Source: Candidatus Kryptoniota bacterium (GTDB taxonomy: Bacteria; Bacteroidota; Ignavibacteria; Kryptoniales; JAKASW01). From it: DNA of 64,000 nt. Shown piece by piece: positions 2,892 through 62,012 of the stretch (the stretch's first letter is position 1; each line of letters opens with the position of its first letter). The stretch is taken from the NCBI GenBank assembly GCA_024641705.1, contig JAHECO010000005.1:98188-162187 (forward strand). The letters are read 5' to 3'. A program made the position numbers and the translations under genes. The notes under the pieces were generated by a model that was not told the DNA's origin, did not search any database, and saw only the letters and a program-made list of their open reading frames with translations.

Positions 2892-3292
2892 AATTGACCG
2901 CGAACATAGACGGAGCGTCGTTCGGCAACCCGGGCGCCAGCGGGCTGGGAGTCGTCCTTAAGGATAGCGAAGGAAAAGTCCTAGTAGAGCACTTCGAACA
3001 CCTCGGACACGGCACGAACAATCGTGCCGAGTATATGGCTTTGCTCAGAAGCATAGAACTTGCGGAAAAGCTCGGCGGTGACGAACTTGAAGTGCTGTCG
3101 GACAGTCAGCTGGTTGTTTCGCAAATGAACGGCGTCTATAAGGTCAAAAACGGCGATATAAAGGCGCTCGTTCTCAAGGTCAGGGAAAGGCTGGCGCGGT
3201 CAGGATTGAAATTCAGGATTGTCCATGTCCGCAGGGAATTCAATAAAGAGGCGGACAAACTTGCAAAGAAAGGAGCAGGGCTTGTTGTTTAG
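2888..3292 (+). CDS. ribonuclease H (RNase HI-type fold)
   Basis: The ORF track gives 2834..3292. The likely start is ATG 2888, overlapping the preceding TGA (ATGA). Translation reads MKLTANIDGASFGNPG...NNRAEYMALL...LSDSQLVV...NKEADKLA, which matches the DEDD RNase H catalytic pattern. Confidence 0.8.
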   Translation: MKLTANIDGASFGNPGASGLGVVLKDSEGKVLVEHFEHLGHGTNNRAEYMALLRSIELAEKLGGDELEVLSDSQLVVSQMNGVYKVKNGDIKALVLKVRERLARSGLKFRIVHVRREFNKEADKLAKKGAGLVV

Positions 3293-3740
3293 GAGTGAGC
3301 CAGGCAGCCGCTCCGACTTCGGTCGGGGAGGAAAGTCCGGACTCCACATGGCAGCGGGCTCCGGTGTTCGCTTCGGCGAATGTCGGAGGCGGGGCGACCC
3401 GACGGAAAGTGCCACAGAAAATATACCGCCCCGATCCAACTCGTTGGATCGGGGTAAGGGTGAAAAGGTGGGGCAAGAGCCCACCGTTCCCGGTGGTGAC
3501 ATCGGGATGCACGGTAAACCCCCCGCGGAGCAAGACCAAGTAAGGGAGAATTCCCGAACGGACTTTGTCCGCTCGGGAGCGAGGCTGCCAGTCTCGCTTT
3601 CCCGAACACGAGGTTCGGGATCCCGATCATCACACGATGTGAAAGGATCGGGAGACTCCCGGGTAGGTCGCTCAGATAAATGGCTGCCTCTTCTCCGCCT
3701 CGGCGGAGAAAAGACAGAATTCGGCTTATCGGCTCACTCC
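3292..3740 (+). ncRNA. rnpB: RNase P RNA, bacterial type A
   Basis: P1 pairs GGAGTGAGCC (3292-3301) with GGCTCACTCC (3731-3740). Universal blocks are present: GGAGGAAAGTCCGGACTCCACA (about 3325-3348), GAAAGTGCCACAGAAAATATACCGCC, AAGGGTGAAAAGGTGGGGCAAGAGCCCACC, AGATAAATGGCTGCC and ACAGAATTCGGCTTAT (3714-3729). All ORFs over this span are spurious. Confidence 0.93.
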
Positions 3741-3772
3741 GCTTCTTGTTTCGGCTTGTCGGAAAGAACCAG

Positions 3773-50913: not shown

Positions 50914-51564
50914 TTATCGTTGGACGAAAACTACGGTTACTTCTTTAGGCCCGTGAACACCTGTAACGAGCTCTTTTTCGATGTCTGCGGTGCGGCTTGG
51001 TCCCGTTATCAGCAGCAAATTACTTCCCTCGAAATTACCGAATCTGTCCGTGAAAAGCTCGTCGAGTGAGCCGAGAAGCTGACGCTCTTCCGCCACGACA
51101 AAAAGGCTTGTGGCCAGGGCGGCAGGAAGGCGCATGTCGGTCTTGATTACAGCACTCCCCGTCTCTGCGATACAGGCGACACAACCGGTTACGGCAGATT
51201 CGAAAGACGCAGCCTCACGCTTGTCGTACCCGCGGCCGAACTCGAGGCCGAATCTTGCTTCCCGCGACTCGGTGAGGAGAGAAGTGAACGTCCCGTATCC
51301 GGTCCTTATGTCGTCGTAGACGAAGATGGCTCCGGTTTTCTTCGCCGTTACGATGTCGGCGAGATCTGTTTCGCTGCCGGCTGTCGCCGCCTCACCGCCG
51401 AGGGCCGACAGCTCTGCCTTGAAGTGCGCGAAGCGTGACGCGAAGTCGGCGTCCGGTTCGGTTAGAAGCGGTGATTTGGCACTCCTGCCGGCGGAAGGTC
51501 TTTCAGTACCGCGCAGGCCGCGCCTGATCGATGCGAGTATCTTCTCCCGGTCGTCTTCTATCAT
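50914..51564 (-). CDS. lutC: LUD-domain lactate utilisation protein C
   Basis: Preferred ATG 51564 (MIEDDREKILASIRRGL) overlaps the lutB stop (ATGA). A LUD/YkgG-like region follows (GCVACIAETGSAVI...). It completes the lutA-lutB-lutC order. Confidence 0.75.
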   Translation of the reverse strand: MIEDDREKILASIRRGLRGTERPSAGRSAKSPLLTEPDADFASRFAHFKAELSALGGEAATAGSETDLADIVTAKKTGAIFVYDDIRTGYGTFTSLLTESREARFGLEFGRGYDKREAASFESAVTGCVACIAETGSAVIKTDMRLPAALATSLFVVAEERQLLGSLDELFTDRFGNFEGSNLLLITGPSRTADIEKELVTGVHGPKEVTVVFVQR

Positions 51565-56110: not shown

Positions 56111-58753
56111 ATGAACTTGAATAAACTGACAATCAAATCACAGGAAGCGCTTGAAACCGCGCAGGCGATCGCGGGCGAAAACTCTCAACAGGCGATCGAA
56201 CCCGAGCACCTTCTGATTGCACTTCTTAAGGACGACGAGGGCATCCCCTCGCTGGTACTCAAGAAGGCGGGCGCCAACATCGAGTATATCCGCGCCAAGA
56301 GCGAAGAGGCCGTTCAGAAATTTCCAAAGGTCAGCGGCGGAGGAATCGCTAATCACTATCTCTCGCAGCCGCTGGCAAAAGCGCTTGATTCGGCCGAAAA
56401 AGAAGCCTCGCAGATGAAGGATGAGTATGTGAGCACGGAGCATCTGCTTCTCGGCCTGCTCGGCGATCGCAGTATAGACGCGTACAAGATCCTGAGCTCG
56501 CAGGGGGTCAACCGCGAGATTGTGTTAAAGGCATTGCACGAGATCAGGGGTACACAGCGGGTGATCGATCAGAACCCGGAAGAGAAATACCGGTCTCTCC
56601 AGAAATTCGGAAGGGATCTGACCGACCTCGCAAGGAAAGGCAAGCTCGATCCGGTCATAGGGCGCGACGACGAGATCAGGCGCGTGTTGCAGGTGCTTGC
56701 GAGGCGAACCAAGAACAATCCGGTTCTCATAGGCGACCCGGGTGTCGGAAAGACCGCTGTCGTCGAGGGAATTGCCAGACGCATCGCAAGCGGCGATGTC
56801 CCGGATGGGCTGAAGTCCAAGAGAATAGTCGAGTTGGACATGGGCAGCCTCGTGGCCGGCACATCCTATCGGGGACAATTCGAGGACAGGCTAAAGTCGA
56901 TCATCAAGGAGGTCGTCGAGTCCGAAGGAGAGATAATCCTTTTCATGGATGAACTCCATACTCTCGTAGGTGCAGGAGCTGCACAGGGTTCCGTGGACGC
57001 ATCGAACATGTTGAAGCCGGCACTTGCCCGCGGCGAACTCCGGGCCATCGGGGCCACGACTATCAAAGAGTACAGAAACCACATTGAAAAAGATCCTGCA
57101 CTTGAGAGAAGGTTCCAGCCGATCATGATAGATGAGCCATCCGTCGAGGACACGATCTCCATACTTCGCGGACTGAAAGAACGGTATGAAATCCACCATG
57201 GCGTCAGGATAACCGACGGGGCGATTGTTGCTGCGGCACAGCTCAGCAACCGGTATATCACAGACCGCTTCATGCCCGACAAAGCGATCGACCTCATCGA
57301 CGAAGCGGCATCGAAGCTCCGTATCGAGATGGACTCGCTGCCTGAAGCCCTTGACGAGGTCGAGAGGAAAACGAAACAGCTGGAAATTGAAAGAGAAGCT
57401 ATCAGGAGAGAGAAGGACGAAGAGTCGAAGAAGCGGCTCGGCATAATCGAGCATGAGCTCGCAGATCTTCGCGAACAGGGCGCCCAGCTTAAGGCTCACT
57501 GGCAGATCGAGAAGGATCTTATACAGACCATCCAGAAGTCGAAAGAAGATATTGAACGCCTCAAGCTCGAGGCCGACAAGGCGGAGCGTGCGGGGGATCT
57601 GGGGAAGGTCGCTGAAATCCGTTACGGGAATATTACGGCGGTTGAAAAAAGACTCAAGGAGTCGACGCAGCGACTTGCCGAAGCGCAGAAGAACAGCAAG
57701 ATGCTGAAAGAAGAAGTGGAAGCAGAGGACATTGCAGAAATAGTCTCGAGGTGGACAGGAGTACCCGTTTCAAGAATGCTCGAGAGCGAGCGAAGCAAGC
57801 TCCTCCACCTGGAAGAGAAAATACACGCTCGTATGGTCGACCAGGAAGAGGCCGTCTCCGCGGTCGCTAATGCCGTGCGGCGTGCAAGGGCCGGACTGCA
57901 GGATGAAAAACGCCCGATAGGATCGTTCATATTCATCGGCTCGACCGGAGTCGGCAAGACCGAACTGGCACGGGCGCTGGCGGAAGCTCTCTTCGACGAT
58001 GAAGACGCCATGGTACGCATCGACATGTCGGAGTACACCGAGAAGTTTTCCGTTTCCAGGCTTACCGGAGCACCTCCCGGATACGTCGGATACGAGGAGG
58101 GAGGCCAGCTTACCGAGGCAGTGAGGAGGAAACCTTATTCAGTGGTGCTCCTGGATGAAATTGAAAAGGCTCATCCGGAGATATTCAACGTCCTTCTCCA
58201 AGTACTCGACGACGGCCGGCTCACGGACAGCAAGGGGAGGACGGTCAATTTCAAGAACACAATCATCATCATGACCTCCAACCTCGGTTCGCAGCTCGTG
58301 CAGCAGAAAATAGAGACGACCAAGGAGCGCGAGAGGGCGGAAATGATGGAGAACCTGAAGAGCGAACTGTTTTCTCTCCTCAGACAGACAATCAAGCCGG
58401 AATTCTTGAACAGGCTCGATGAGATTATCGTGTTCAAACCGCTTACTCGCAACGAGATCAGAAGCATCGTCGATCTTCAGTTGGCCAGGATCATCTCGAG
58501 ACTGAAAGAGAACAACAGCCTCACGCTTGAAGTAACCGAACGGGCGAAACTGTTCCTTGCCGACGCGGGCTACGACCCGCTCTACGGCGCGAGGCCGCTC
58601 AAACGCACCATCCAGAAGTACATATCGAACCCGCTGGCCGAGAAGGTCCTGGCAGGCAACTTCGGGCCGGGGGAGACCGTTGAAGTAGACATTCGCGAAT
58701 CGGGGAAGATAGAGTTCACCAAAGTCAAGGAACAAGCGGAGCCGGTGAGCTAA
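56111..58753 (+). CDS. clpB: ATP-dependent disaggregase ClpB
   Basis: 880 aa. It has a Clp_N repeat, two AAA+ modules (GDPGVGKT and [11 protein letters not shown]) and the long middle coiled-coil. Confidence 0.98.
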
Positions 58754-58798
58754 ACACGCAGTCGATCTTGCAACATTAACATCTCATTATCTCTTTTG

Positions 58799-58835
58799 AG
58801 TCCGCCCGGTCGAAAACGGGCGGACTTGCTTTTGG
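58799..58835 (+). terminator. rho-independent terminator of clpB
   Basis: A 10-bp stem AGTCCGCCCG / CGGGCGGACT (58799-58808 / 58817-58826) with an 8-nt loop is followed by TGCTTTTGG. Confidence 0.7.
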
Positions 58836-59179
58836 AGCGTGCGAAAAGTTTCTACAGTTTTCCTGTTGCATTGACCGATCTCTTTACATTACATTTCATC
58901 GACGTAGATAGAAGTCAGGTGAAGAGGTAGCAGATCGTCCGCGAGCTGGGTAGCAGCCGCGGAGTACCAGGTAATTCCAAACCATACATAACATAACCAA
59001 GACTAGCGTAAGTCTGTCGAGTAGTTAAGACCGGCTGGATCAGTTGATGGCTCATGCCGGACTGCGCAATTGCGCTGGCCGCATTTTGGCACTTGGCCGC
59101 CGAAGTGGCCGTCCAAGTGTGAAAATTGGCCATTCTTGCGCTGTGCGGAGGGATTTCATTGCTGGCGGGAGAAAAGTCG

Positions 59180-59452
59180 ATGGCGATAATAGTCAGGTCC
59201 ATGCGGAGAGATCGGGGCTCGATTCAAAAAGGTGGCGGGTGAACGAGTAGAGAATGGATTTCAACGTGAATAGTTGACAAGTGAATGCGGAGAGATGCTG
59301 ACTCGATGCGGAAAGATCGATAGTCCATGCAGAAAGATGACGGCGCTCCTTGGAAGGAAGCTGGCTCAATGGATAAAGAAGAGATCTTGATGTCAGAAGA
59401 TAACCTGTTGATTCGAAAAGATAGGATATCGATGTCGTAAGTTGCGACACGG
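59180..59452. repeat. degenerate tandem array with strict 21-nt phasing (box ATGCGGAAAGAT)
   Basis: Box ATGs fall at 59180, 59201, 59285, 59306, 59327, 59369, 59390 and 59432, so every spacing is a multiple of 21. The best boxes are ATGCGGAGAGAT (59201 and 59285), ATGCGGAAAGAT (59306) and ATGCAGAAAGAT (59327). Weaker in-register copies lie at 59222, 59369, 59390 and 59411. Confidence 0.75.
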
Positions 59453-59568
59453 ACGAAGAGAGTTAACCCATGAAAGTCGAAAGTTGCATGTTGACTGCTC
59501 ACCTTGACCGCGAAGAGCTTTCAATGGTCCTCTTGCGAGCGACGCAGCGCCGCACCCATGCCTTTACC

Positions 59569-59860
59569 GTCATTGCGAGGAGCTTGGGAGTACATCCGAT
59601 GCGCGAGGAAGCAATCTGCTACCCATGGTGAGTGGTGGTGAAGGGAAGGGGATTGCTTCGAGGTTGTCCCAAAACAAGGAAAATGTCATTCTGAAGGAGC
59701 GGAGCGACTGAAGAATCCACTTATTCGTTCTGAAAAATGGATGCTTCACTTCGTTCAGCATGACAGACAAGACTTTCTGGACAGCCTCTCGCAATGACGG
59801 GTGGAGGAGGGGATTGCTTCGCCCGTCCGTCCAATGTCGGGACGGACTCGCAATGACGGA
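59569..59860 (+). repeat. composite hairpin-repeat block, left copy (outer stem GTCATTGCGA/TCGCAATGAC, inner stem GAAGCAATC/GATTGCTTC, nested variant element, GTCCGTCC/GGACGGAC hairpin)
   Basis: Four modules recur downstream of the GIY-YIG ORF. The 51-nt module 59569-59619 matches 60188-60238 with 3 mismatches. The 15-nt module 59648-59662 equals 60259-60273. The 29-nt module 59789-59817 equals 60290-60318. The 20-nt module 59832-59851 equals 60377-60396. Confidence 0.85.
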
Positions 59861-59880
59861 TTTATGATGGTGCTGAAGAA

Positions 59881-60168
59881 ATGGATAAGACCTTTTGCGT
59901 TTATATCATGACAAACAAATACAACACGGTGCTGTATACCGGGGTAACGAGCGATCTGGCAAGAAGAGTGAGGCAGCACAAGGAAGGAGTTTACCCTGGA
60001 TTTACGAAGAAATACAACGTCACGAAGCTGGTCTACTACGAGGTATGTGATGGCGCTAATGAGGCAATACGACGGGAGAAGCTGATCAAGGGAGGCTCAA
60101 GGAAGAAGAAAGAGGCATTGATCAACAGTGTTAACAGCGAGTGGAGGGATCTGAGTGAAGACATCTGA
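59881..60168 (+). CDS. GIY-YIG nuclease family protein (small stand-alone URI-domain type, COG2827-like)
   Basis: 95 aa. FCVYIMTNKYNTVLYTGVTSDLARRVRQH gives the GIY...YIG motif pair and conserved Arg. YYE...REK follows. Confidence 0.85.
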   Translation: MDKTFCVYIMTNKYNTVLYTGVTSDLARRVRQHKEGVYPGFTKKYNVTKLVYYEVCDGANEAIRREKLIKGGSRKKKEALINSVNSEWRDLSEDI

Positions 60169-60187
60169 TGCACACCGTACCCACAAC

Positions 60188-60405
60188 GTCATTGCGAGGA
60201 GCCTGGGAGCACATCCGATGCGCGACGAAGCAATCTGCTGCGGCGGTGGTTGCGTGAAGGGGATTGCTTCGAGCCGCTGCCGCGGCTCTTCGCAATGACG
60301 GGTGGAGGAGGGGATTGCCCGTCAAAGCCGGATCTCATCCTCCCTAGCCGGGCGGACTCAACTTCGTCCGTCCCTCCAATGTCGGGACGGACTCGCGATG
60401 ACGAG
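60188..60405 (+). repeat. composite hairpin-repeat block, right copy
   Basis: This is a direct repeat of the modules listed for 59569-59860. The double-stem element spans 60188-60299 (112 nt) without the nested insert. An extra ~48 nt lies between the GGGGATTGC module and the GTCCGTCC hairpin. Confidence 0.85.
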
Positions 60406-60418
60406 TTGATTGGCACGC

Positions 60419-60525
60419 GTCCGCCTGCGCCAGGGGCTTCGGCGGACTTTGTGGTCAATTACAGAGCGTCAGTTTCTTTGCATTTCAGTCCGCCTGCGCC
60501 AAAGGCTTCGGCGGACATTGTGGTT
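60419..60525 (+). repeat. two direct copies of a 38-nt hairpin repeat (GTCCGCC-15 nt-GGGCGAC-type stem GTCCGCC/GGCGGAC)
   Basis: Copy one is 60419-60456, GTCCGCCTGCGCCAGGGGCTTCGGCGGACTTTGTGGTC. Copy two is 60488-60525, GTCCGCCTGCGCCAAAGGCTTCGGCGGACATTGTGGTT. Each forms a 7-bp stem. Confidence 0.8.
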
Positions 60526-60586
60526 TCTTGAGGGTCAATGGTTTTATTGCATTTCTGCAAAAATTTCGGCATTTTGAATTAAAAAA

Positions 60587-61174
60587 GTGAAAAGAAAATC
60601 CTCCCTCAACCGCGTAACTCGGGAAACCCAGATTGCGTGTGACGTCAATCTGGATGGAATCGGGAAATACCAGGTTTCGACCGGTATAAAATTCTTCAAC
60701 CACATGCTGGAACTCTTTTCTAAACATAGCCTTATCGACCTGACTCTGAAGGCAAGAGGCGATGTGGAAGTCGATGACCACCATACGGTCGAAGATGTCG
60801 CGATTGTGATAGGAAAATGTGTCGACAAGGCGCTCGGAGACAAGGACGGAATAAACCGCTATGGCAATGCTTACGTGCCGATGGATGAGTCGCTCGCGCG
60901 GTGCGTGATAGATCTGTCGGGAAGAGGACACTGCGTGTTCCACGCGGATTTTTCCCGGCCTAAAGTAAGTGACCTTTCGACCGAAATGATCGAACACTTC
61001 TTCAAATCCATGGCGGAGAATCTTAAGGCGAATATTCATGTTGAGTTACTTTACGGGAAGAATAACCACCACCGCTCGGAGGCAATCTTCAAGGCGTTCG
61101 CCCTCGCCCTCCGGGAAGCGGTCTCTCTGAATCCCCGTATTGTCGGAGTGCAGTCGACGAAAGGGAAGTTGTAG
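60587..61174 (+). CDS. hisB: imidazoleglycerol-phosphate dehydratase
   Basis: 195 aa with a GTG start. RETQIACDVNLDG, FFNHMLELFSKHS, DDHHTVEDVAI and HHRSEAIFKAFALALREA are the IGPD metal-binding motifs. Confidence 0.93.
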   Translation: MKRKSSLNRVTRETQIACDVNLDGIGKYQVSTGIKFFNHMLELFSKHSLIDLTLKARGDVEVDDHHTVEDVAIVIGKCVDKALGDKDGINRYGNAYVPMDESLARCVIDLSGRGHCVFHADFSRPKVSDLSTEMIEHFFKSMAENLKANIHVELLYGKNNHHRSEAIFKAFALALREAVSLNPRIVGVQSTKGKL

Positions 61175-61175
61175 G

Positions 61176-62012
61176 ATGCTAGACAGTAAGAAGATCGGTG
61201 TAATAGGAGCGGGACATATCGGAACGGCCGTCATAGGCGGGCTCGTGCGGGCGAAGCTGACATCTCCGAAGAACATAATTGCCTCGAGGAGAAGCACGAA
61301 CAGCCTCGACGATGTTTCGAAGAGCCTCGGAATTCATATAACGACCGACAACAAGAAGGTCGTCAAGTCGTCGGAAATCGTAATACTAGCCGTGAAGCCG
61401 ATGAACGCGCGCGACGTGATGACGGAAATTAAGGATCTCGTTACGCCGGACCATCTCATCATAAGTGTAATGGCGGGCATTAAGACTTCGTTCATAAATA
61501 ACTTCATGGGGGTGTCGTGTCCGGTCATACGGTCCATGCCCAACACGCCCGTTCTCGTCGACACGGGAGCAACCGCCGTCAGCAAGGGAAGTTTCGCTAC
61601 GGATGAGCATCTTAAGCTGGCGCTTACCATCTTCAAATCGGTGGGGACTGTCGAAGTCGTTCCCGAGAATCTCCTCGATGCCGTGACGGGTCTGAGCGGC
61701 AGCGGTCCGGCCTACATCTACATGGTCATAGAGGCGATGACCGACGGTGGTGTAAAGATGGGAATTCCCAGGCAGATCGCCTTCAGGCTCGCCGCGCAGA
61801 CTGTGCTCGGCGCCGCGAAGCTTGTCATCGAAACCGGAAAGCATCCTGCGATACTGAAGGACGAAGTGACGACTCCGGGCGGTACTGCCATCGCGGCAGT
61901 GCACGAGCTGGAGACTCACGGTCTGCGGACGATGCTGATCAACGCCGTCTCGACGGCGACGGTGAGAAGCAAAGAGCTGAGCAGGATCATAGAAGAGAAT
62001 GAAAGTATCTGA
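61176..62012 (+). CDS. proC: pyrroline-5-carboxylate reductase
   Basis: The track ORF starts at 61140 inside hisB, so ATG 61176 (MLDSKKIGVIGAGHIG) is preferred. RSMPNTP, GSGPAYIYMVIEAM and VTTPGGTAIA motifs are present. Confidence 0.9.
   Translation: MLDSKKIGVIGAGHIGTAVIGGLVRAKLTSPKNIIASRRSTNSLDDVSKSLGIHITTDNKKVVKSSEIVILAVKPMNARDVMTEIKDLVTPDHLIISVMAGIKTSFINNFMGVSCPVIRSMPNTPVLVDTGATAVSKGSFATDEHLKLALTIFKSVGTVEVVPENLLDAVTGLSGSGPAYIYMVIEAMTDGGVKMGIPRQIAFRLAAQTVLGAAKLVIETGKHPAILKDEVTTPGGTAIAAVHELETHGLRTMLINAVSTATVRSKELSRIIEENESI

Follow-up and report, generated by a model that had tools for sequence, protein, structure and literature searches.

The SsnA/Ssn proteins (cd10448), which are about 94 aa long and consist of a single GIY-YIG domain, are endonucleases that cleave single-stranded DNA (ssDNA) at specific sites (Chenal et al. 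2025, Nat Commun 16:2388, PMC11893778). Here, we compare with them a 95-aa GIY-YIG open reading frame (ORF), referred to as ssn, and the hairpin repeats flanking it in a 64-kb stretch of a Candidatus Kryptoniota genome (contig JAHECO010000005.1, positions 98,188 to 162,187; referred to as the window). Characterized Ssn enzymes come from Neisseria, N. elongata, N. wadsworthii, and Wolbachia. SsnA of N. meningitidis, a 94-aa single-domain GIY-YIG protein (cd10448), binds its flanking NTS repeat (CGTCATTCCCGCGMAVGCGGGAATCYRG) only as ssDNA and on only one strand, and it cuts a few nucleotides upstream of the CGTC-headed hairpin repeats (NTS/SRM); neither double-stranded NTS nor RNA of the same sequence is bound. 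Each of the substitutions Y6A, Y17A, and E64A abolishes cleavage. The base most critical for binding is the C right after the palindrome, and the three bases that lie upstream of this palindrome are the most important for cleavage. At least one SRM was reported at 71% of the homolog loci (42% with SRM on both sides), and the Ssn system lowers the transformation of Neisseria by NTS-bearing DNA. The same authors remarked on the insertion sequence (IS)-like NTS-ssnA-NTS layout and on an analogy to IS200 and RAYT-REP systems (PMC11893778).

Related hairpins have been described as CGTC-tagged repetitive extragenic palindromes (REPs), which include Neisseria dRS3/NIME and Rickettsia RPE and for which a dedicated transposase is apparently lacking (Di Nocera et al. 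2013, PMC3733652). The original prediction for the window proposed a nuclease-plus-hairpin system comparable to RAYT/REP, which Chenal et al. have established for the family (PMC11893778); its statement that no function had been assigned to stand-alone GIY-YIG genes or to such repeats has been outdated since their report of March 2025. The system as such is already described. What is new is limited to a member from an uncultured bacterium, evidence for an ATTGC-type SRM in a cross-phylum clade, and the turnover of units at the strain level.

A GIY-YIG protein of the Ssn family

The sole Pfam match of the 95-aa protein was PF01541 (GIY-YIG; E = 1.1e-17; residues 5 to 77). In a pairwise BLASTP comparison, the protein was 48% identical to the SsnA ortholog of N. 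gonorrhoeae over 90 aa without gaps (E = 3e-28), and a tblastn search of a 7.3-Gb plasmid collection returned the N. gonorrhoeae match at E = 9e-17 (48% identity). The homology threshold for the Ssn family is E < 1e-10 (PMC11893778), and the protein falls below it. The Neisseria ortholog has 94 aa, and the positions of its Y6, Y17, and E64 agree with the published numbering (PMC11893778); they correspond to Y8, Y19, and E66 of the 95-aa protein, which are invariant columns (alignment A1). The protein is thus a member of the Ssn family, which supplies the correct annotation for very common "hypothetical GIY-YIG" genes. An NCBIfam search returned no specific model for the family, and the best solved-structure match was the UPF0213 protein BH0048 (1zg2; E = 3e-6). 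A second weak GIY-YIG-like tblastn match (53446-53225) was to a LutA CCG-domain protein and was rejected as a chance match.

The ssn ORF has no partner genes and lies alone in the 1.8-kb spacer between clpB and hisB. Among several hosts, the plasmid collection yielded homologs in Neisseria gonorrhoeae, Sinorhizobium, Azospirillum lipoferum, Novosphingobium, Sphingobium, and Rhizobium. The N. gonorrhoeae gene (94 aa) is flanked by dRS3-type repeats (CGTCATTCCCGC...GCGGGAATC), and that of S. meliloti is located between gltA and lpxB with the flanks CGTCATCCTCGGG...CCCGAGGATCC. On plasmid AZO_p3 of Azospirillum lipoferum 4B (L084, 255506-255799), ssn is located between sufB and sufC in the suf operon, with repeat dimers on both sides; the both-sided layout is also present in S. 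meliloti and Azospirillum. Upstream of the intact gene in S. meliloti CP090106.1 lies a tandem duplication (L083, 2697-2812 and 3193-3308; 116 nt; 96% identical; spacing, 496) that comprises a truncated 3' ssn fragment, the downstream repeat, and a spacer; this is direct evidence of tandem duplication of ssn-repeat cassettes. The collection (PLSDB) includes whole chromosomes mislabeled as plasmids (N. gonorrhoeae, 2.17 Mb [L082, NZ_CP119140.1]; S. meliloti, 3.7 Mb; Aeromonas, 4.9 Mb), and the Neisseria ssnA ortholog carries no annotated feature in NZ_CP119140.1.

Six oriented hairpin units around ssn

The original prediction had placed four repeat modules in the same order on both sides of the gene, and a repeat search recovered all of them in place. 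The module first given as 51 nt with 3 mismatches was found as a 53-nt pair (59568-59620 and 60187-60239; 94% identical, 3 mismatches); the others were a GGGGATTGCTTCGAG block (59634-59662 and 60245-60273; 86% identical), a 29-nt block (59789-59817 and 60290-60318; 100% identical), and a 49-nt hairpin block (59817-59865 and 60362-60410; 88% identical). Within the window, these modules are confined to the surroundings of ssn. Allowing up to 1 mismatch, GTCATTGCGAG occurs six times, all within 59569-60402 (1.5 expected; 0 of 100 shuffles reached six), and all three copies of GGGATTGCTTCG are at the ssn locus (0.5 expected).

Six oriented units account for the modules (Table 1). Their common form is YGTC-ATTGC-GAG...(variable)...CGAA-GCAAT-C, and each (6 of 6) begins with (C)CGTC-AT or TGTC-AT. 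Their order is A(+), B(-), C(-), gene, A'(+), B'(-), C'(-), i.e., three upstream and three downstream, indicating that the ordered set A-B-C is directly duplicated around the gene. The orientation around ssn is (-,+), with heads toward the gene. In unit B, a nested composite element substitutes for the interior or lengthens it.

Table 1. Features of the ssn locus (window coordinates)
Feature	Position	Strand	Description
ssn gene, GIY-YIG ORF	59881..60168	+	95 aa, single domain, SsnA homolog
clpB	56111-58753		Neighbor on one side of ssn
hisB	60587-61174		Neighbor on the other side of ssn
SRM-like unit A	59568..59620	+	CGTC-ATTGC-GAGGAGC...GGAA-GCAAT-CTGCT; long interior; 94% identical to A'
SRM-like unit B	59648..59799	-	CGTC-ATTGC-GAG...CGAA-GCAAT-CCCC on - strand; termini match B'
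SRM-like unit C	59808..59858	-	Distal stem TCCGTCC/GGACGGA; head 22 nt upstream of ssn start codon
SRM-like unit A'	60187..60239	+	Head 18 nt past ssn stop codon
SRM-like unit B'	60258..60300	-	5-bp ATTGC:GCAAT stem, GAA/GAA internal loop, 7-bp distal stem
SRM-like unit C'	60309..60403	-	Degenerate; head CGTC-ATCGC mismatched with tail GCAAT; longer interior
Nested 128-nt composite element	59661..59788	.	Outer inverted ends AGGTTGTCC/GGACAGCCT
Inner unit N1	59685-59718	+	GTC-ATTCT...AGAAT-CC
Inner unit N2	59738-59765	-	GTC-ATGCT-GA-ACGAAGT-GAA-AGCAT-CC

A two-stem structure of about 112 nt had also been predicted. The region concerned (60186-60302; 117 nt) does fold as DNA far better than shuffles (-37.1 versus -23.4 kcal/mol; z = -5.8; 0 of 200 shuffles as good), but it is simply the inverted pair of units A' and B'. 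Unit B' alone folds to -12.5 kcal/mol (z = -3.0). The unit recognized by the protein is probably the single oriented hairpin (YGTC head, palindrome, and C) and not the 112-nt dimer. The spurious translation of the repeats that had been pointed out exists as ORF 59570..59794 (-) (...VMLNEVKHP...SLRSFRMT...), and such peptides (...SLRSFRMT..., ...VMLNEVKHP..., or VIASEAKQS-like) can flag small spurious ORFs derived from repeats. A literature search by repeat sequence strings returned primers only.

Several features of the published system recur at the locus. The protein is a single GIY-YIG domain of about 94 to 95 aa with 48% identity and the same Y/Y/E residues, the gene is flanked on both sides by oriented hairpins that start with (C/T)GTC-AT and have a C after the palindrome, and the repeats form arrays of alternating orientation. 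The published repeats, however, have an 8-bp stem and a 4-nt loop, whereas the window units have a 5-bp stem (ATTGC:GCAAT) and, next to it, a conserved internal loop of purines, GA(G)/(C)GAA, and the distal part is variable in this clade (5 to 70 nt). The hosts also differ: the window bacterium is an uncultured inhabitant of sediment or wastewater, and the link to natural transformation is that of Neisseria. The both-sided oriented hairpin repeats, YGTC head, AT-initiated palindrome, and 3' C of the functional architecture were all found here, while the published operational definition had no match among the units (see below). On this basis, we filed the locus as Ssn/SRM with a variant, ATTGC-type bipartite SRM that looks undescribed. 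We consider it highly probable that the locus consists of an Ssn nuclease with the six flanking units as its cognate SRM.

Other repeats were observed in the same spacer. A palindromic repeat (GTCCGCC-N15-GGCGGAC followed by TTGTGGT), which is not an SRM, is present downstream of the array in two copies (60419-60455 and 60488-60524; 92% identical), and a related hairpin directly follows clpB (58800-58825). Three direct repeats of about 46 nt (...ATGCGGAGAGATCG...; 61 to 72% identical) are located in the clpB-ssn spacer at 59186-59336. The weak subthreshold Rfam matches at 59026-59116 (Atu_Ti1, E = 0.033; Ms_AS-1, E = 0.55), which fall on both strands and span a palindromic stretch (59058-59081), are probably due to chance.

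ATTGC-type units across a cross-phylum clade

A search with the 95-aa protein returned 5484 matches, with 65 to 77% identity in very distant phyla. For comparison, we used 80 loci (L002-L081; 57 to 71% identity; 81 with the window) from a scan of one genome per species. These loci span more than 12 phyla, and their sources are Thermodesulfovibrio, Nostoc/Calothrix, Ignavibacteria, Balneolaceae, Bacteroidota, Chloroflexota, Nitrospirota, Omnitrophota, Alphaproteobacteria, Rickettsiales, Patescibacteria, Elusimicrobia, and others. We describe them as part of a large cross-phylum Ssn clade (57 to 77% protein identity; Cyanobacteria, Bacteroidota, Chloroflexota, Nitrospirota, Omnitrophota, Alphaproteobacteria, Patescibacteria, and others) with a distinct ATTGC-type bipartite SRM, whose near-invariant termini YGTCATTGCGAG...CGAAGCAATC enclose either a d(GCGAAGC)-type mini-hairpin or an arbitrary insert.

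Repeat enrichment near GIY-YIG genes had been set as a test of the original prediction, and the outcome favors the prediction: enrichment was about 30- to 50-fold across the 80 loci (within 100 to 500 nt of the gene versus beyond 1 kb). Under a loose definition of the unit (GTCAT-NNN-(4-70 nt)-N'N'N'-AT), the density was 8.8 units/kb within 100 nt of the gene, 4.5 at 100 to 200 nt, and 0.28 beyond 1 kb. A strict definition gave densities of 3.14/kb at distances up to 500 nt and 0.066/kb at more than 1 kb; for unrelated, HisB-selected loci (480 kb), the value was 0.006/kb. Strict units located more than 1 kb from ssn were 10 times more frequent than in the unselected background; most of them were from L069, L027, L081, and L079 (Omnitrophota) and L020 (Spirochaetes), with up to 8 per 10 to 20 kb, and dispersed unit populations accordingly seem strongly expanded in some lineages. 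Units were present within 400 nt of the gene in 73 of the 81 loci (n = 291 units). They flanked the gene on both sides in 59 of 74 genes, the commonest layout being unit(+)-gene-unit(-) (29 of 74). Two ssn copies within 20 kb were observed at only 3 of the 80 loci.

The stem was of the ATTGC type in 71% of the 291 units, and the other types were ATTCT, ATCGC, ATCCT, and ATTCC. Two features that the search definition did not impose were nearly constant, i.e., a C directly after the palindrome (93%) and a C or T before GTC (92%), and these positions match those most critical for binding and cleavage (PMC11893778). The AT at the start of the stem was imposed by the search and is thus a selection criterion rather than a clade-wide measurement. 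Near the gene, 69% of the GTCAT heads had their own complementary tail within 75 nt, compared with 6.8% over the remaining 63 triplets; among non-ATTGC heads, the values were 44% and 7.3%. A test for an association of stem type with protein similarity was underpowered, with only three same-type non-ATTGC pairs (mean identity, 0.67 versus 0.58; 36 of 2000 permutations gave a value at least this high).

The same termini (CGTCATTGCGAG...CGAAGCAATC) were found in the flanks of Calothrix, Flammeovirgaceae, Villigracilis, a Pseudobdellovibrionaceae metagenome-assembled genome, and Balneolaceae. The short canonical unit is YGTCATTGCGA-GCGAAGC-GAAGCAATCTC (explicitly, YGTCATTGCGAGCGAAGCGAAGCAATC (YGTCATTGCGAGCGAAGCGAAGCAATCTC)), and at its center, a C-GNA-G mini-hairpin shows covariation of the closing pair (GC, 22; AT, 10; CG, 1). 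Over the clade, the interior is 5 to 70 nt long (median, 21), the contiguous stem is 5 bp, and the tail consists of C plus variable bases; long units such as those of the window keep the hairpin base and vary the distal part. The core d(GCGAAGC) is said, after Hirao et al., to be a classic extra-stable DNA mini-hairpin, and tandem 5'-GA/3'-AG mismatches are stable in DNA. Together, the d(GCGAAGC)-type core and the GA tandem mismatches point to a DNA rather than an RNA structure.

Several results weigh against our reading of the repeats as cognate SRM. The published SRM pattern (HGTCWYN(0-2)YYVSBRHN(0-5)WNVSBRGN(0-2)RNCYNB) matched 0 units at 59500-60450, with one unrelated match at 51408, and it matched just 3 of the 80 loci of the clade; at the Neisseria locus, it detected 9 sites over 6 kb, and Azospirillum gave 4. 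For the repeats, membership therefore depends on a generalized architecture rather than on the definition in the paper. Neither A nor A' by itself folds better than shuffles (z = +0.7), and in ssDNA, the A'+B' pair would prefer to form a single long hairpin resembling a duplex, whereas SsnA bound no such form in the experiments with Neisseria (PMC11893778). No ATTGC-type unit was found elsewhere in the window. Finally, the source-sample metatranscriptome contained no RNA or expression evidence at the ssn locus, a result that is uninformative. With regard to the pattern itself, detection at 3 of 80 loci compared with 73 of 81 under the generalized definition means that it underdetects the repeats of a major Ssn clade; the published Ssn-SRM association (71%; 42% on both sides) is thus probably an underestimate.

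By analogy with the characterized homologs, we infer that the 95-aa protein cleaves ssDNA, and such cleavage is predicted to be ssDNA only, site specific, and a few nucleotides upstream of the repeat. In the mechanism we propose, unit-bearing DNA would become single-stranded during replication, repair, or the arrival of incoming DNA, and the unit would then fold into a hairpin. Ssn would bind the conserved hairpin base (YGTC head, 5-bp AT-NNN stem, GA/GAA purine internal loop, and C after the stem) and cut the same strand a few nucleotides 5' of the YGTC head, leaving the distal part free to vary from a 7-nt d(GCGAAGC)-type mini-hairpin to inserts of about 60 nt. The predicted cuts on the + strand are just 5' of 59568 and 60187, and those on the - strand are just 5' of the heads at 59799, 59858, 60300, and 60403. 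Cleavage of this kind would modulate recombination or the fate of single-stranded DNA. Each new Ssn-SRM pair is also a candidate site-specific ssDNA-cutting reagent, and the tolerance of the ATTGC-type unit for arbitrary distal inserts could help in design.

Unit turnover and the question of mobility

Residency of the locus was assessed in metagenomes, i.e., the source run X1 (sediment) and runs X3-X5 (wastewater), which contain a related strain with flanks about 95% identical to the window. The original prediction would have failed had a relative carried only one of the two, gene or repeats, at this locus; the related strain carries both there, which favors the prediction. Its 373-nt contig over 59844-60205 (about 90% identical, as is ssn) had the same depth as the flanks, indicating that the gene is resident at this site. 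The array differed. Joints 60239>60180 and 60245>59565 revealed head-to-tail tandem A-type units, which reached 15 to 20 times the flank depth; a 92-nt part of C' (60290-60381) was missing (joint 60289>60382; runs X3-X5), as was one of the two downstream GTCCGCC hairpins (joint 60453>60541). These joints, missing parts, and raised depths indicate that whole units are gained and lost around a stable gene. The gene thus behaves as a resident, vertically kept locus, and unit gain and loss at a fixed ssn locus offers a tractable handle on how such repeats multiply. A metagenome scan with HisB found its nearest relative at 80% identity on a contig starting at hisB, making a comparison of the junction impossible; the others were at most 57% identical.

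The element nested in unit B behaves differently from its surroundings. Its inner units N1 and N2 are inverted relative to each other, with stems that are self-complementary within each unit (ATTCT:AGAAT and ATGCT:AGCAT) and different between units. In run X1, the depth was about 2000 over 59638-59871, whereas the ATTGC-type units, the gene, and the flanks had depths of 10 to 12; a 79-nt unitig (59683-59761) had a depth of 811, and three other contigs (depth, 8 to 11) shared the element. It is therefore high-copy in the metagenome, and the short-read assembly (Logan contig) breaks inside it (59686-59763). In wastewater run X3, its depth was >1000 versus 27. No cognate ssn gene for the ATTCT and ATGCT stem types was found in the window.

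We favor, as the putative role of the pair, a domesticated or selfish nuclease-repeat system of the RAYT/REPIN type. The resemblance to RAYT/REPIN and IS200/IS605 TnpA is an analogy of layout only. Both have a single resident nuclease gene flanked by hairpins that are recognized, in the window by prediction, as ssDNA, repeats that form inverted doublets and may be dispersed, and a conserved tetranucleotide beside the hairpin foot; the window enzyme, however, is a GIY-YIG hydrolytic nuclease and not an HUH/Y1 transposase, its tag is CGTC and not GTAG, and for Ssn, neither a covalent intermediate nor strand transfer is known. Mobilization of the repeats by the nuclease is a hypothesis, here as in Chenal et al. 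With the CGTC-tagged REPs, the window units share the terminal CGTC/TGTC tag, a stem starting with A-T and T-A, and inverted dimers and arrays, and the hosts of these REPs (Neisseria, S. meliloti, A. lipoferum, and sphingomonads; PMC3733652) overlap those with ssn homologs. Their units differ in having an 8- to 9-bp stem, a 4- to 5-nt loop, and a CCA tail, compared with the 5-bp stem, long interior, and C plus variable tail of the window. I-TevI-type homing endonucleases share the GIY-YIG catalytic domain and possibly selfish behavior. The window protein nevertheless lacks a DNA-binding extension (NUMOD, zinc finger, or helix-turn-helix) and an intron, intein, or phage context, being located at a chromosomal clpB-hisB site, its TIGR01453 match scored 16.9 bits against a cutoff of 56, and the Ssn substrate is ssDNA hairpins rather than a double-stranded homing site. 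UPF0213/YhbQ/BH0048 proteins (PDB 1zg2) are also minimal GIY-YIG domains (about 100 aa), although the sequence match is distant (E = 3e-6), and we know of no repeat association for them.

An alternative, possible but in our view doubtful, is that the unit-ssn-unit cassette is an autonomous IS-like or homing element that moves, possibly via ssDNA, with solo unit dimers as nonautonomous derivatives and Ssn acting not in the service of the host but as a transposase or homing nuclease. Such movement would fit the position of the gene inside conserved neighborhoods of unrelated genomes (sufB-ssn-sufC in Azospirillum, gltA-ssn-lpxB in S. meliloti, and clpB-ssn-hisB in the window), the resemblance of the commonest layout, unit(+)-gene-unit(-), to terminal inverted repeats, the tandem duplication in S. 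meliloti, the high-copy unit dimer nested in unit B, and the IS-like architecture remarked on by Chenal et al. (PMC11893778). Protein identity of 57 to 77% over more than 12 phyla, combined with nearly identical DNA termini, likewise suggests horizontal spread. However, neither a target-site duplication nor a clean empty site was found, ssn is present once in the window and rarely twice within 20 kb at the related loci, and strand-transfer or ligation activity is not known for Ssn. Moreover, the layout in the window, with heads toward the gene, is not that of terminal inverted repeats, and retention of the gene at the same site in a strain with about 10% ssn divergence fits vertical residence. 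A broader proposal, which we judge unlikely, is that of an active mobile system based on ssDNA: the clade would spread horizontally, and its GIY-YIG nuclease would seed and multiply unit dimers, nested insertions, and tandem arrays; if true, this would be a transposition-like mechanism without an HUH or DDE enzyme.

It is very improbable that the repeats act at the RNA level, i.e., as transcribed hairpins (terminators, mRNA stabilizers, small RNAs, or a cis-regulator) with a regulatory association to the gene. REP-type repeats do act as RNA elements in other bacteria (PMC3733652), and the gene has units in its 5' as well as its 3' flank. Nonetheless, they occur in both orientations on both sides, and their conserved d(GCGAAGC)/GNA-type core with tandem G-A mismatches is a motif of DNA stability. 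A promoter and terminator scan of 58700-60700 gave nothing above shuffles (0 intrinsic terminator-like sites; 2.0 expected), neither a gathering-threshold Rfam scan of the whole window nor a scan of 58700-60700 at E <= 10 assigned the repeats to a family, and SsnA does not bind RNA of the NTS sequence (PMC11893778).

A nuclease of the Slx1/UPF0213 (YhbQ) type with a general role in repair or recombination, placed by chance in a repeat-rich intergenic region, is a barely credible reading of the protein: BH0048 is its best structural match and stand-alone GIY-YIG proteins were earlier classed in an Slx1-like cluster (PMC1564403), but the protein is far closer to SsnA than to UPF0213, and flanking units in 73 of the 81 loci across phyla, enriched 30- to 500-fold, rule out coincidence.

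Elsewhere in the window, a proC-like gene (F420_oxidored/P5CR_dimer domains; 61140-62012) lies between hisB and hisH in the histidine biosynthesis cluster, and a class A bacterial RNase P RNA was detected at 3292-3744 (RF00010; 250 bits).

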